From the sequence record NC_054925.1: 64,000 nt of DNA; one strand, 5' to 3'. Of this stretch, positions 134 through 34,806 are shown in pieces (position 1 is the stretch's first letter; each line of letters starts with the position of its first letter). Below the pieces are notes generated by a model, which worked only from the letters and a program-made list of their open reading frames with translations, had not been told where the DNA came from and ran no database searches. The position numbers and the translations under genes were made by a program. This DNA comes from Escherichia phage vB_EcoM_NBG2.

Positions 134-727
134 TTATTTCAGAGAATTAATGTATTCCTGAACATCGGCAGAGGTAGTTTCAACCCCAGAAATATTACCG
201 TTAAAGGTTTCAACTCGAGCAAGAGTATCTTCAATATCAACCTTAGTCAGTGCTGCAATTTCAACTACATCATCAGCAGTACTAATTCCAAGGGCATTTG
301 CTGCACGAGTTTCACGGATATATTCCAATTTAACCGCAAGTTCTTGGCGTGCATCATCCAATTCAACTACTTTCTTAGCGATTTCAATTCGCATTTCAGC
401 ATAACCATCAGCTTTAGTAGTCAACTGCTCAGCTGTTCGACGATATAGTAAACCGAGTTTAGCATGCATTGTTACATCTTGACCTTCGGAAAGAAGCTTG
501 CGAATTTCACGCTCTTTTGATTCAGCCTGCTTATTCTTTTCGACAATAAGTTCACGAATACGTTTTTCTTCATTAATAGATTTAACAGAAGCAGTTTTTA
601 GATCTTTAATCTTATCAAGTAGTTTTGCTGCTGCAGCAGTATACTGTTCTTCAACAGATAGATTTTTAGCCATAGCAGAACCAAGTTTAGTGCGAATAAA
701 CTCAACAATTTTCTTCAGTGTGTTCAT
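134..727 (-). CDS. hypothetical coiled-coil protein, 197 aa; PspA/IM30-like composition, unverified
   Basis: Complete ORF; K/E/A/L-rich heptad-like sequence throughout. Confidence 0.6.
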
Positions 728-1015: not shown

Positions 1016-1279
1016 TTATTTCATATTATTGAAATATTCTTCTGCGATTTCGTCGTTATCATGGTAAACTTTAGAAGACAGTTTAACATAACCTTCAGCA
1101 GTGAACATGTTAATCACAACCTTTACAGTATACCACTGACCATCTTCATTACCCATTACTGCGTAAGTTTCAAACATCGGATGATCAGGACCGATAACTT
1201 TAATATCATTCACTGTACGACCGAAATCTTCTGAAACACATTTCATAAAGAAGTTGAACAGTTCGCCGTAATTATCCAT
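1016..1279 (-). CDS. hypothetical protein, 87 aa (start moved to internal Met)
   Basis: Track ORF 1016..1342 begins inside its own predicted promoter; ATG at 1279 is preceded by GGAGAA. Confidence 0.5.
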   Translation of the reverse strand: MDNYGELFNFFMKCVSEDFGRTVNDIKVIGPDHPMFETYAVMGNEDGQWYTVKVVINMFTAEGYVKLSSKVYHDNDEIAEEYFNNMK

Positions 1280-1486: not shown

Positions 1487-1513
1487 AAAAAGCCCCAACC
1501 TTTCGGTCGGGGC
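1487..1513 (-). terminator. intrinsic terminator: stem GCCCCGACC-GAAA-GGUUGGGGC followed by UUUUU on minus transcript
   Basis: 9-bp stem with one G-U pair plus U5 tract immediately downstream of the 1522 stop. Confidence 0.7.
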
Positions 1514-1521
1514 TAAGAATG

Positions 1522-1995
1522 TTATTTGATTTGTTTAGCAGACCAAATGCGGTCTTTAATAATTTTTTGGATGTCTTCAACATACTCAAGAGAGTGAGCA
1601 TGTGGATTATCTTTGAAACTATAAGCACGAGCTAGTTTTTGGCCTTCAGTTTTGATTACTAAAAGCTCTTTAAGGATAGCTTCATATTTGGAGATAATTC
1701 CTTTAACAATATTTTTTTCTTGTGCAGCTTTAGGATCTGCTTTAGGAGCAGGTTTACCCGAAGCCTTTGCAAAAGCAGCGCCAGTAGCAACTAGACTTTT
1801 CCAGGCCATACTAACCGCATTTCCTGTAAATCCTTCTGCTTTCATGTCGCGAGCAAATTGGAATCGCGATTCGTCAGAAGCATCTTTATAAGAATATTTA
1901 CCCGCTGCAATGGCTGCTTTTGCGACAGCTTGAATTTCGGTGCTAGATGCTTCATTTAACACCGCTTCATTTAAAAATTGAGTATATGATTTCAT
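1522..1995 (-). CDS. internal-protein-like protein with N-terminal capsid targeting sequence (MKSYTQFLNE/A), 157 aa
   Basis: Start moved to Met at 1995 (AGGAAA RBS); N-terminus matches the T4 IP CTS pattern as I recall it; TATAAATA late promoter upstream. Confidence 0.55.
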   Translation of the reverse strand: MKSYTQFLNEAVLNEASSTEIQAVAKAAIAAGKYSYKDASDESRFQFARDMKAEGFTGNAVSMAWKSLVATGAAFAKASGKPAPKADPKAAQEKNIVKGIISKYEAILKELLVIKTEGQKLARAYSFKDNPHAHSLEYVEDIQKIIKDRIWSAKQIK

Positions 1996-2033
1996 CTTAT
2001 TTCCTGTTTTAATTCGTGGATTTAATATACTAA

Positions 2034-2041
2034 TATTTATA
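2034..2041 (-). promoter_or_regulatory. T4 late promoter TATAAATA on minus strand, about 40 nt upstream of the 1995 start
   Basis: Plus strand reads tatttata at 2034-2041. Confidence 0.5.
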
Positions 2042-2043
2042 CT

Positions 2044-2070
2044 AAAAAGCCCCAACCTTTCGGTCGGGGC
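2044..2070 (-). terminator. intrinsic terminator, second identical copy of the 1487-1513 hairpin plus U-tract; ends the tRNA/small-RNA transcription unit
   Basis: 31-nt string aaaaagccccaacctttcggtcggggctaag identical at 1487-1517 and 2044-2074. Confidence 0.7.
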
Positions 2071-2074
2071 TAAG

Positions 2075-2385
2075 CCTTGCGGCAACCTTGTCGGGGTTCC
2101 ACCTGCTAAGGCAAGTGTTTGTACGAAACGCCGGGATTCGAACCCGGTTATTAAGTAGTTGACGCTACTCAATATTTTTAAAAGGCCATATCTCGACCAT
2201 ATCCGAACGTTCCGTCAAAAACGCTACTCGGCTTATGGCAAAGATATTTCCTCGAATCGATAATTCGGTGCGCCGTTTCTGCTGTGATATAAGGGGACAT
2301 TAACAAAACATAAAGATTTATTAATGCCAGTCCTTAAACAGGGAACATCAGTCCGACGACTTGCCGGTAGCGACCCGGCTTCTTG
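2075..2385 (-). ncRNA. candidate small stable RNA(s) or degenerate tRNA-like element downstream of tRNA-Arg
   Basis: No convincing ORF; minus strand carries a tRNA-like T-arm CCGGG-UUCGAAU-CCCGG (plus 2131-2147) without a matching acceptor stem; position corresponds to where T4 encodes small stable RNAs. Confidence 0.3.
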
Positions 2386-2461
2386 TCTGGTCGAGGCAGT
2401 AGGGATCGAACCTACGACCCAGGACTTAGAAGGTCCTTGCTCTTCCTTCTGAGCTATGCCT
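2386..2461 (-). tRNA. tRNA-Arg (anticodon UCU), CCA encoded
   Basis: Manual fold: acceptor CGAGGCA/TGCCTCG, D-stem GCTC/GAGC, anticodon stem AGGAC/GTCCT with loop CTTCTAA, T-arm GTAGG-TTCGATC-CCTAC. Confidence 0.8.
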
Positions 2462-2467
2462 CGTATT

Positions 2468-2542
2468 TGGCGGACGTGATAGGATTCGAACCTATAACCA
2501 ATCGCTTAACAGGCGATCGCTCTGCCATTGAGCTACACATCC
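2468..2542 (-). tRNA. tRNA-Asn (anticodon GUU), CCA encoded
   Basis: Manual fold: acceptor GGATGTG/CACGTCC, D-stem GCTC/GAGC, anticodon stem ATCGC/GCGAT with loop CTGTTAA, T-arm ATAGG-TTCGAAT-CCTAT. Confidence 0.75.
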
Positions 2543-2546
2543 AAAT

Positions 2547-2633
2547 TGGTGGGGAGTGGTGGAGTCGAACCACCCGAGTCGCAATGACAATGAATTTACA
2601 GTCCACACCGCTACCCCTACGGGATAACTCCCC
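2547..2633 (-). tRNA. tRNA-Tyr (anticodon GUA), long variable arm, CCA encoded; D-arm atypical
   Basis: Acceptor GGGGAGT/ACTCCCC, anticodon loop CTGTAAA, variable-arm hairpin GTC-ATTGC-GAC, T-arm GGTGG-TTCGACT-CCACC; D-stem pairing weak. Confidence 0.55.
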
Positions 2634-2642
2634 AAATTAATT

Positions 2643-2717
2643 TGGTGGCCCTGGGTGGAATTGAACCACCATCTGGCGATTATGAGTCGCGTGCTTGAAC
2701 CTTCCAGCTACAGGGCC
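2643..2717 (-). tRNA. tRNA with CAU anticodon (Ile via lysidine, or Met), CCA encoded
   Basis: Acceptor GGCCCTG/CAGGGCC, anticodon loop CTCATAA, T-arm GGTGG-TTCAATT-CCACC. Confidence 0.7.
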
Positions 2718-2719
2718 TT

Positions 2720-2794
2720 GGTGCTGATTGACGGAATCGAACCGCCGACCTTCTCATTACAAGTGAGTTGCTCTACCTACTGAGCTAAATCAGC
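2720..2794 (-). tRNA. tRNA-Thr (anticodon UGU), CCA encoded
   Basis: Acceptor GCTGATT/AATCAGC, D-stem GCTC/GAGC, anticodon loop CTTGTAA, T-arm GGCGG-TTCGATT-CCGTC. Confidence 0.8.
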
Positions 2795-2799
2795 AAAAC

Positions 2800-2889
2800 T
2801 GGCGGAGGCGATAGGATTTGAACCTATGAGTCGCCGGAGCGACTGCCGGTTTTCAAGACCGGTGCATTAAACCACTCTGCCACGCCTCC
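2800..2889 (-). tRNA. tRNA-Ser (anticodon UGA), class II long variable arm, CCA encoded
   Basis: Acceptor GGAGGCG/CGCCTCC, anticodon stem CCGGT/ACCGG with loop CTTGAAA, T-arm ATAGG-TTCAAAT-CCTAT. Confidence 0.85.
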
Positions 2890-2891
2890 AG

Positions 2892-2965
2892 TCTCCATAC
2901 AAGGATTTGAACCTTGGACCTCCTGATCCCAAATCAGGCGCTCTACCAAACTGAGCTACACGGAG
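2892..2965 (-). tRNA. tRNA-Pro (anticodon UGG), no encoded CCA; 2 nt from tRNA-Ser (dimeric precursor arrangement)
   Basis: Acceptor CTCCGTG/TATGGAG with two G-U pairs, D-stem GCTC/GAGC, anticodon stem CCTGA/TCAGG with loop TTTGGGA, T-arm CAAGG-TTCAAAT-CCTTG. Confidence 0.8.
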
Positions 2966-2975
2966 TAAATTAAAT

Positions 2976-3049
<74 letters not shown>

Positions 3050-3054
3050 AAATT

Positions 3055-3141
3055 TGGTGCGAGAAGTGGGACTCGAACCCACAAGGAAATCATTCCGCAG
3101 CATTTTAAGTGCTGTGCCTTTACCAATTTGACCATTCTCGC
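3055..3141 (-). tRNA. tRNA-Leu (anticodon UAA), class II long variable arm, CCA encoded
   Basis: Acceptor GCGAGAA/TTCTCGC, anticodon stem CAGCA/TGCTG with loop CTTAAAA, T-arm GTGGG-TTCGAGT-CCCAC. Confidence 0.85.
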
Positions 3142-3142
3142 G

Positions 3143-3215
3143 CTGGGAATAAAGGACTCGAACCTTTGCATCCTGGAATCAAAATCCAGTGCCTTACCAA
3201 CTTGGCTAATTCCCA
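3143..3215 (-). tRNA. tRNA-Gln (anticodon UUG), no encoded CCA; 1 nt from tRNA-Leu
   Basis: Acceptor TGGGAAT/ATTCCCA, anticodon stem CTGGA/TCCAG with loop TTTTGAT, T-arm AAAGG-TTCGAGT-CCTTT. Confidence 0.8.
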
Positions 3216-4249: not shown

Positions 4250-4537
4250 TTACAAAAGATTTTTAGCAATAATCTTGAGATGTGCCGCAGAAATGTGTTT
4301 AGCTTTAAACAACGCAGTTTCTTCAGCAGGAGAGATAACGATTGTAGCACCATCCTTTTTAGCAGACCACCCATCACCTAGGTAAACAGTACCTTTGATT
4401 TCTTCGCCATCAACCAGACTAATCATTGGTTTACCTTCTCGTCCTTTATTTGCTTTAATAACTTCAGAAGTAAGAGTAGCCTCGGTAATGGTAGAAACCG
4501 GGGTAGTTGTAGAAGTAAATTCTTTAAATGTTTTCAT
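4250..4537 (-). CDS. internal protein I-like head protein with CTS-like N-terminus (MKTFKEF...), 95 aa
   Basis: Same size as T4 IPI and located next to 57B as in T4; N-terminus resembles the CTS; body not recognisably IPI. Confidence 0.6.
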   Translation of the reverse strand: MKTFKEFTSTTTPVSTITEATLTSEVIKANKGREGKPMISLVDGEEIKGTVYLGDGWSAKKDGATIVISPAEETALFKAKHISAAHLKIIAKNLL

Positions 4538-33743: not shown

Positions 33744-34168
33744 TGCTTCTGATCCCTGAAACTCATGAATTAGTTCTCGAGAATGTCGAAGCACTTATTC
33801 CTGAAGCACAGGGTCGCTTTGACGAATTGTCTTCTGCTTTAAATAAAGACGATATAAATACAATTGTCGAGAATATGCTTGATGATGAAACTGATTTAGC
33901 GGTTGCATTAGCTTCTATTAATGAAAATATGCCGTTAAATGAATTTATCGTTAAACATGTTTCTGCCCGTGGTGAAATTACTCGCACTAAAGATCGCAAA
34001 ACCCGCGAACGTAATGCATTTCAAACTACCGGGTTGTCTAAAGCAAAACGTAGACAAATTGCTCGTAAAGCTACCAAAACGAAGATTGCCAATCCAGCAG
34101 GTCAATCTCGTGCTCAGCGTAAGCGTAAAAAAGCTCTTAAACGCCGTAAAGCATTAGGATTAAGCTAA
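33743..34168 (+). CDS. 68: prohead core protein gp68, 141 aa
   Basis: Size and synteny. Confidence 0.7.
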
Positions 34169-34806
34169 TGAATGAACCCCAATTACTAATTGAAACTTGG
34201 GGTCAACCTGGCGAAATTATTGATGGCGTACCAATGCTTGAATCTCATGATGGAAAAGACTTAGGTTTAAAACCGGGTTTATACATCGAAGGAATATTCA
34301 TGCAAGCGGAAGTCGTCAATAGAAATAAACGTCTTTATCCAAAACGTATATTAGAAAAAGCGGTAAAAGACTATATTAATGAGCAAGTTTTAACTAAACA
34401 AGCTCTCGGAGAATTAAATCATCCTCCACGCGCTAATGTTGACCCGATGCAAGCCGCTATCATTATAGAAGATATGTGGTGGAAAGGAAATGACGTATAC
34501 GGACGAGCTCGTGTTATTGAAGGTGACCACGGTCCTGGAGATAAATTAGCAGCTAATATTCGTGCCGGATGGATTCCAGGAGTTTCTTCTCGTGGATTAG
34601 GTTCATTGACTGACACAAATAAAGGTTATCGTATCGTAAACGAAGGATTCAAATTAACTGTAGGTGTTGATGCAGTATGGGGTCCAAGTGCTCCAGATGC
34701 ATGGGTAACTCCTAAGGAAATTACCGAATCACAGACGGCGGAAGCCGATACAAGTGCCGATGACGCCTATATGGCTCTCGCAGAGGCCATGAAAAAAGCG
34801 TTATAA
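34168..34806 (+). CDS. 21: prohead core protease gp21, 212 aa
   Basis: Size and synteny. Confidence 0.9.
   Translation: MNEPQLLIETWGQPGEIIDGVPMLESHDGKDLGLKPGLYIEGIFMQAEVVNRNKRLYPKRILEKAVKDYINEQVLTKQALGELNHPPRANVDPMQAAIIIEDMWWKGNDVYGRARVIEGDHGPGDKLAANIRAGWIPGVSSRGLGSLTDTNKGYRIVNEGFKLTVGVDAVWGPSAPDAWVTPKEITESQTAEADTSADDAYMALAEAMKKAL

Follow-up and report, generated by a model that had tools for sequence, protein, structure and literature searches.

Why do many T-even-type phages carry a small gene between e.8 and rnaC, enclosed by two copies of one terminator, and what might its product do? The question was raised by 64,000 nucleotides of Escherichia phage vB_EcoM_NBG2 (NC_054925.1), a Tequatrovirus; the whole of this stretch was analysed and is referred to as the window. 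On its minus strand, an open reading frame (ORF) at 1522-1995 encodes a protein of 157 residues beginning MKSYTQFLNEAVLNEA. A reading of the DNA letters alone (the original prediction) had proposed that this protein bears a capsid-targeting sequence, is packaged and injected, is possibly directed against a host defence, and was acquired as a cassette between duplicated terminators. The gene is called ipX here and its product IpX, a name chosen on the view that it is quite likely a previously unnamed member of the internal protein (Ip) class of the T-even phages. The 1.1-kb region around it is 96-98% identical to that of many Escherichia, Shigella and Yersinia phages of T-even type. The observation behind the original prediction was confirmed and its interpretation essentially supported; the result is not categorically new and would be plausible to a T4 specialist.

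The IpX leader resembles those of known internal proteins

The leader of IpX, MKSYTQFLNE|AVLNE|A (codons 1-15; 1951..1995, minus strand), was aligned with the leaders of 13 known Ips, namely IPI, IPII and IPIII of T4, Ip4, Ip5 and Ip7 of T2, Ip5 and Ip6 of T6, and the Ips of RB69. IPII, IPIII and T6 Ip6 begin with MKTYQEFIAE and T2 Ip4 with MKTYQEFITE; IPI begins with MKTFKEFTS...TE and T2 Ip7 with MKTFKEFINEA, compared with MKSYTQFLNEA in IpX. Amber-suppression mapping of the IPIII leader assigned targeting mainly to residues 4 and 7 and processing to residues 8 and 10, and in T4 ten leader residues are enough to package foreign proteins (review PMC9026906). IpX has all four of the critical IPIII residues, as Y4, F7, L8 and E10. 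The resemblance to the T4 leaders from which the original prediction started therefore extends, in the alignment to the N-termini of IPI, IPII and IPIII, to the mapped targeting and processing positions.

At the sequence level, the (L/I)-x-E cleavage motif of the gp21 prohead protease is present twice, as L8-N9-E10|A11 and L13-N14-E15|A16. A repeat scan revealed a 15-bp tandem duplication in the leader, with GCTTCATTTAA occurring twice 15 nt apart (1949..1974; copies 1949-1959 and 1964-1974). The duplication doubles the LNE|A motif, so that gp21 has two candidate sites, one following E10 and the other E15. Phage LH2, which is without the duplication, encodes a 152-residue protein starting MKSYAQFLNE|ASAS, and other leader lengths were seen in RB27 and Mosigvirus. 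Gene 21, whose product is the putative partner that removes the leader, lies at 34168..34806 on the plus strand (Pfam Peptidase_S77, E = 1.5e-111); this protein is 99.5% identical to what we take to be the T4 gp21 sequence. Among the 573 ATG-initiated frames of at least 40 codons in the window, only two matched the pattern MK[ST][YF]x[EQ]F, namely ipX and ipI.

The same leader features were found in distant relatives of IpX. Those that are full length (P0071 and P0073-P0076) all start with M..F.[EDS]F[LV] and have a leader ending in E, the individual sequences being MLKFNEFLAE, MINFSDFLNE, MKSFSSFLNE, MISFNEFVDGNLITE and (M)ATSFNEFLLSE. In an alignment of 12 sequences with overall identities to IpX of 24-37%, M1 and F7 were invariant, L8 was nearly so, and position 4 was always aromatic; positions 4, 7, 8 and 10 are those of the leader that these relatives keep best. 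The length of the leader varies by insertions and deletions; among 60 family members, all complete and correctly started variants end in [L/M/F]-x-E, which directly precedes a conserved mature start, A/Q-S-S-x-D/E-V/I. Taken from these comparisons, there is a strong case, at the level of sequence, that the N-terminus of IpX is a capsid-targeting sequence, and the conservation of the leader down to 24% identity is difficult to account for unless targeting and cleavage are under selection.

Promoter and terminators of ipX

A T4-type late promoter, matching TATAAATA exactly, lies at 2034..2041 (minus strand), 38 nt upstream of the ATG and 2 nt past the T-tract of the upstream terminator. The Shine-Dalgarno sequence AGGAAA (2000..2005, minus strand) stands six bases before the ATG and is kept in all Tequatrovirus homologues compared. 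The window contains 22 copies of TATAAATA, a number not attained in any of 100 shuffles; the expectation was 9.6 +/- 3.4. The element is found at the same position in RB32, RB68, fD1, Nami, LH2 and RB27, in which the order of terminator, TATAAATA and ribosome-binding site is conserved throughout, and in the Klebsiella Jiaodaviruses KP1 and ValerieMcCarty04, where terminator and late promoter keep their order and the terminator sequence differs. In Mosigvirus the late promoter of ipX is AATAAATA, one mismatch from TATAAATA. A promoter scan of the minus strand from the upstream terminator to the ATG reported no sigma-70-like site. Because of this and of the conserved order of terminator, promoter and ribosome-binding site, ipX looks like an insulated, late-only transcription unit; late-only expression would suit a protein needed in head assembly.

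The upstream intrinsic terminator (repeat copy 2; 2044..2074, minus strand) ends the tRNA/rnaD/rnaC unit, and the downstream one (repeat copy 1; 1487..1517, minus strand) begins 4 nt past the ipX stop codon. The two are identical over 31 of 31 positions, with no match expected by chance, and no further copy with up to 3 mismatches was found in the window. The repeat extends to 36 nt (1482-1517 and 2039-2074), of which 35 are identical. On the minus strand, each copy folds into a hairpin whose 10-bp stem includes 7 G-C pairs and whose loop is GAAA, followed by a T5 tail; the centroid energy is -20.3 kcal/mol, and none of 200 shuffles folded as well (z = -4.3 and -3.2). The ORF, the late promoter, the AGGAAA and the identical 31-nt terminators had all been read correctly in every detail, as checked against the sequence and by shuffling.

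In RB32 and RB68, the two terminator copies differ at 2-3 positions. The stem positions that differ in other phages (RB32, L005 1424-1459 and 1979-2014; L006; L013) read GACC against AGCC or TAGCC, and pairing is mostly kept via G-U wobble. The perfect identity of the copies in the window may stem from recent conversion between them. The flanking repeat itself is not a new observation, because the GenBank record of RB32 already describes RB32ORF133c as 'flanked by 34 bp imperfect direct repeat', without giving a function.

ipX is a real gene of a small protein family

IpX belongs to the family PHROG 2280 (E = 2e-60), the family of RB32ORF133c and fD1 g140, for which the PHROG function label is 'unknown'. 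A Pfam scan of IpX gave no family match, PF11634 included. By tblastn, ipX was found in 510 phage records, 466 of them with the full-length gene, compared with 595 records for the neighbouring gene e.8; most sequenced Tequatrovirus and Mosigvirus genomes carry it. The annotation is 'hypothetical' in essentially every record, the sole exception found being a homologue from Klebsiella phage KPKp with the UniRef name 'Internal head protein'. RB32ORF133c was not found mentioned in searchable papers. Of 1.84 billion representative proteins searched with a profile, only 13 came back as relatives, which makes this a small family.

Against seven homologues, the pairwise ratio of nonsynonymous to synonymous divergence (dN/dS, or omega) was 0.02-0.19, and a domain-level test gave no sign of positive selection, omega being below 0.25 everywhere. 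ipX is a real gene under purifying selection. Two longer versions of the frame were rejected. A 216-residue, TTG-initiated ORF (1522-2172, minus strand) and the 187-residue protein annotated in the GenBank record of PP01 (P0026) both run through the terminator into rnaC, and for this reason the starts and N-terminal extensions of both are considered spurious. Several database members of the family are truncated or chimeric (P0011-P0013, P0072 and P0077).

An exact presence/absence unit in a proposed third internal-protein locus

In T4, the interval between e.8 and rnaC measures 284 bp and holds one terminator copy and no gene, in agreement with the statement in the original prediction that T4 has no ip gene there; T2 and T6 are likewise without ipX. 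The T4 intergenic region aligned to the window in two blocks overlapping at the repeat. In T2 and T6 the junction consists of ggcctagatacc, the 31-mer and ccttgcggc, that is, the left flank of copy 1 followed by the right flank of copy 2, and it therefore corresponds to the window minus exactly 557 bp. The ipX unit, either present or absent, measures 557 bp and has the terminator repeat as its exact boundary. The gene is non-essential and polymorphic, being absent from T4, T2 and T6, where a clean empty site is left, and replaced or absent in some Jiaodaviruses.

The literature counts 'the two Ip loci in T-even phages' (PMC12373910). ipX lies outside both of them (57B-trna.4 and denV-e); a position in one of the two is customary for ip genes and not defining. 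In Mosigvirus (L007), ipX has the same location and likewise lies between two terminator copies that are identical, and it is directly followed, after the second copy, by another leader-bearing gene. This gene, ipY, encodes 187 residues starting MKTYAEFLTEAAKLPSEA... and has its own late-promoter-like element, AGTAATAAATAA. It was located at L007 3089-3652 (Mosigvirus, ST2/PhAPEC2-like), at L011 1200-1671 (Tequatrovirus Nami) and at L009 11429-11991 in RB69, where it is frameshifted into ORF149c and ORF148c. IpY was found in 165 phage records, in each of them as a hypothetical protein, and its sequence is 95-99% identical when Mosigvirus and Tequatrovirus are compared. A weak alignment (hhalign probability 70%) links its C-terminal 80 residues to the C-domain of IpX.

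In Klebsiella phage KP1, the slot contains an IpX with the same N-domain and a different C-domain. The slot of ValerieMcCarty04 (VMC04_131; L014 202-786, minus strand) contains, in place of the ipX of KP1, a different leader-bearing gene, ipZ, whose 194-residue product starts MKFKDFLTEEELFEA... / MKFKDFLTEEELFEAAPG... and which sits behind the same terminator and TATAAATA. Neither IpX nor IpZ was found at the slot in ValerieMcCarty03 (L015). Because the same site in other genera holds the terminator, the late promoter and leader-bearing genes, the e.8/rnaC slot makes up a third internal-protein locus, one that had escaped recognition. T2, T4 and T6, the model phages, do not have ipX, which is why IpX has stayed 'hypothetical' and the locus has gone uncounted.

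Loss or gain of ipX

Homologues of ipX were found at the same site, directly downstream of the tRNA/rnaC genes, in Tequatrovirus, Mosigvirus and Klebsiella Jiaodavirus. Synonymous divergence of ipX between genera is saturated (dS > 1.2), and the gene is therefore old at this site. From the counts of about 510 records with ipX and 595 with e.8, absence is the minority state. Loss in T4, T2 and T6 is the more parsimonious explanation because the homologues in Mosigvirus and Jiaodavirus share the site, and ipX was probably ancestral there and lost from these three phages via recombination between the terminator copies; the 36-nt repeat would permit loss or exchange of the cassette by homologous recombination. 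Thus, the cassette between duplicated terminators described in the original prediction stands as an exact unit, whereas the word 'acquired' probably gives it the wrong direction.

The opposite order of events, in which a mobile cassette inserted recently into the window phage, as marked by the duplicated terminators, and no ancestral gene was lost elsewhere, is considered unlikely. It would account for two copies that are identical at 31 of 31 positions in the window, compared with 2-3 differences in RB32 and RB68, and it would fit both the free recombination among T-even phages and the horizontal exchange to which the high identity of the neighbouring ipY between Mosigvirus and Tequatrovirus points. 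However, a recent arrival is at odds with a gene that has the same position, terminator and late promoter in three genera, with the saturated dS between them, and with presence being the majority state.

Detection of a near-identical protein in phage particles

Protein g140 of Yersinia phage fD1 (phiD1, HE956711) is identical to IpX at 156 of 157 residues. It was listed as particle-associated after liquid chromatography coupled to tandem mass spectrometry (LC-MS/MS) of particles purified by ultracentrifugation, a list of low specificity, and was marked there as being without a T4 counterpart. The known Ip homologues of fD1, g129 (Ip4-like) and g146 (IPI-like), were flagged in the same way as g140. 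Virion proteomics had been named in the original prediction as a check, and with g140 a near-identical protein has been detected in purified particles; for the packaging of IpX, the detection is supportive and not decisive. Other sources were of less use: the virion dataset of Shigella phage SH7 comprises 13 proteins only and is too shallow for IpX, the fPS-2 paper contains no proteomics, and the Jiaodaviruses ValerieMcCarty03 and ValerieMcCarty04, purified on caesium chloride (CsCl), lack ipX altogether.

Predicted domains of the mature protein

The predicted mature IpX has 142-147 residues, an isoelectric point (pI) of 9.5-9.6 and a charge of +7 to +8, like IPII and IPIII. An AlphaFold2 model with a mean predicted local distance difference test score (pLDDT) of 77 consists of an N-domain, a linker and a C-terminal hairpin. 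The N-domain (residues 16-76; 1768..1950, minus strand) is predicted to be a three-helix module with the motifs GKYSY, RF.F..D and AWKS, and is also retained in the homologues from Klebsiella and Yersinia phages. The C-domain (residues 96-157; 1525..1710, minus strand) is predicted to be part of a long helical hairpin with helices at 88-124 and 131-154. The N-domain evolves faster (dN ~0.20-0.37 and omega ~0.17-0.22 between divergent alleles), and the C-domain is strongly conserved (dN 0.007-0.05, and ~0.02-0.05 between the divergent alleles; omega ~0.03-0.07). The intervening basic linker, KASGKPAPKADPKAAQEKN (residues 77-95; 1711..1767, minus strand), is rich in Lys, Pro and Ala, with a charge of +2.8, and was modelled with low confidence (mean pLDDT of 54 for residues 81-90 and 70 for residues 91-100); all family members have a linker of the same compositional type.

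The domains appear in more than one combination, the same N-domain being joined either to the 'DRIWSAKQIK' hairpin (E. coli phages, P0071 and P0075) or to a longer 'DVGRHYKKL' C-domain (Klebsiella phages, Yersinia phage fHe-Yen9-01 and P0073).

Searches for a function of IpX with Pfam, PADLOC and a PDB sequence profile were negative. With Foldseek, the model matched no solved structure in the PDB, and in BFVD it matched only orthologues and one distant protein of Serratia phage PS2. The structure prediction that had been proposed as a check therefore produced a helical model and no structural match that would indicate function; an effector function is not indicated by any fold or sequence homology.

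Proposed role of IpX and alternatives

Put together, these features suggest the following course. The upstream terminator would stop the tRNA/rnaC transcript, and two bases further on TATAAATA would start a late mRNA ending at the second terminator copy. The leader MKSYTQFLNE(AVLNE) would target pre-IpX to the scaffolding core of the prohead, where gp21 would cut after Glu10 and/or Glu15; the mature product, basic and of ~15.5 kDa, would stay with the DNA inside the head. The expected mature N-termini would be ASSTEIQ... (after E15) or AVLNEASS... (after E10), with ASSTEIQAVAK and AVLNEASSTEIQAVAK as the corresponding peptides. Mature IpX would then enter the cell with the DNA and act before phage gene expression. 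Its most likely role would be to disable a nuclease of the host directed against modified T-even DNA, for example a type IV variant of the GmrSD type, as Ip1-3 do.

IpX probably goes into the head and is injected along with the DNA; targeting, the position of cleavage, injection and an anti-defence target are what we infer. Ip1, Ip2 and Ip3 are unrelated beyond the leader and each inhibits a distinct GmrSD enzyme, and similar roles have been predicted for other Ips of the two Ip loci (PMC12373910). The sequence of IpX is absent from the supplements of that paper. By analogy with these proteins, and provided that IpX is packaged, an anti-defence function of some kind is somewhat favoured, and a type IV/GmrSD-like target in particular is conceivable at rather less than an even chance.

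Several points weigh against an injected anti-defence protein. The fD1 particle list comprised 113 of the 277 phage proteins, DenV, lysozyme e and NudE among them, together with 672 host proteins. In the examined part of the CsCl-virion dataset of ValerieMcCarty04, no spectra were found for IpZ, peptide assignments being poor there and IpZ being a different protein from IpX. Most homologues of IpX are 95-99% identical, a strong conservation that is atypical of an arms-race inhibitor, and the low omega of the C-domain is not usual for one either. In addition, a role in the head core, either DNA-binding or structural, would be compatible with the Lys/Pro/Ala-rich linker and the helical hairpin.

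These last features could be explained if IpX were packaged via its leader as a structural or DNA-associated component of the head with no specific host defence as its target, binding or neutralising the packaged DNA, aiding its exit or protecting its ends. The basic character of the protein (pI 9.5, +8), its linker, of which the Klebsiella version, KPKPGAAKPKAAKK, is even more like a histone tail, the long and highly conserved C-terminal hairpin, and a level of conservation over hundreds of phages that is unlike that of a fast-evolving inhibitor are all consistent with such a component. It is nevertheless regarded as improbable, given that the gene is naturally dispensable, lacking in T2, T4, T6 and Klebsiella phage ValerieMcCarty03, that unrelated leader-bearing genes can replace it at the slot, and that all three T4 Ips, once seen as generic basic DNA-associated proteins, are specific GmrSD inhibitors (PMC12373910). 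It is very improbable that IpX is an unpackaged late cytoplasmic protein, with a leader resemblance due to descent or chance and an fD1 detection due to contamination: the many plainly non-structural proteins in the fD1 preparation, the lack of any reported N-terminally processed peptide, and Ser in place of Thr at position 3 and Asn in place of Ala at position 9 would be in keeping with this, but no N-terminal feature is better conserved than the leader, which keeps its critical residues and L-x-E down to 24% identity despite insertions and deletions, relatives carry other leader-bearing genes at this slot, and ten such residues package foreign proteins in T4 (PMC9026906).

The preferred reading, a packaged and injected IpX, can be widened to the whole locus. 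On this more doubtful, tentatively held proposal, the third ip locus of the Tevenvirinae would be made up of swappable, terminator-delimited late cassettes, IpX, IpY and IpZ, all of which have a terminator, TATAAATA and a leader, and IpX would be a two-domain injected effector against a defence other than the GmrSD variants that Ip1-3 block. The cassettes would be swapped or lost by recombination via their shared terminator, promoter and leader sequences; the faster-evolving N-domain would be the specificity module, and the helical C-domain would be either conserved or exchangeable. IpX, IpY and IpZ are three new and easily testable candidates for injected anti-defence proteins, which bears on the hosts that therapeutic T4-like phages can infect, and the simple cassette architecture could explain the gain and loss of such genes.

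Genes surrounding ipX

On the minus strand, the order of genes is gene 1, 57A, 57B, ipI, homologues of trna.2-4, ten tRNA genes, rnaD, rnaC, ipX, e.8, a small ORF and e.6. The classical internal-protein gene by 57B, ipI, was located at 4250..4537 (minus strand) by its Pfam family (IPI_T4, E = 7e-54) and by synteny with T4. ARAGORN identified the ten contiguous tRNA genes (2388-3215, minus strand), which are those for Arg, Asn, Tyr, Met, Thr, Ser, Pro, Gly, Leu and Gln; the homing endonuclease gene segB is absent from this cluster, whereas T4 has eight tRNAs and segB. By blastn against T4 features, rnaD (2267-2383) and rnaC (2122-2260), both on the minus strand, are 85.6% and 98.6% identical to their T4 counterparts. 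Downstream of ipX, e.8 (1016..1279, minus strand) is 97.7% identical to T4 e.8 and has its own sigma-70-like promoter at 1351-1323. A 58-residue ORF of the T2/RB14ORF134 type lies at 771-947 in place of e.7. The e.6 homologue (134-727, minus strand) encodes a 197-residue coiled-coil protein, which is annotated as 'host specificity protein' in the ValerieMcCarty phages and whose fD1 counterpart, g137, is also particle-associated.

Comparison with known systems

The DarA and DarB proteins of phage P1 are packaged in the virion, delivered with the DNA, and disarm restriction before phage gene expression. They have no homology to IpX and differ from it in packaging signal and head-assembly pathway, so that the analogy is functional only.

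Among the T4 proteins, IPI (PF11634, a GmrSD inhibitor) is leader-bearing, cleaved after Glu, packaged and injected, and its gene is also present in the window. Its leader has 19 residues; IpX is without PF11634 and has a predicted all-helical fold with no match to a solved structure. Pfam, BLASTP and structural comparison gave no similarity of IpX to IPI*, Ip2 or Ip3, nor did hhalign beyond the leader. IPII and IPIII share with IpX an aromatic residue at position 4, Phe-7, Leu/Ile-8 and Glu-10 followed by Ala, and are similarly small, basic, non-essential and polymorphic. The similarity stops at the leader, however, with nothing found by BLASTP and 18 leader columns aligned by hhalign, and IpX differs from both in its locus (e.8/rnaC and not denV/e) and in having two domains and a basic linker. 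Since only the leader is in common, the identification of IpX with IPII or IPIII was rejected; so was that with T2 Ip4, which has the same length (157 residues) and no similarity.

A further parallel is with the polymorphic Ips of other T-even phages (Repoila et al. 1994, as cited in PMC12373910). Ip4-Ip7 of T2 and T6 and the 'internal head proteins' of RB69 are encoded in the two recognised loci, and IpX is unrelated to all of them outside the leader. The criterion by which they are grouped is the one applied here to IpX, namely a shared leader on otherwise unrelated small proteins, and T2 Ip7 has in common with IpX the I/L-N-E-A cleavage context as well.

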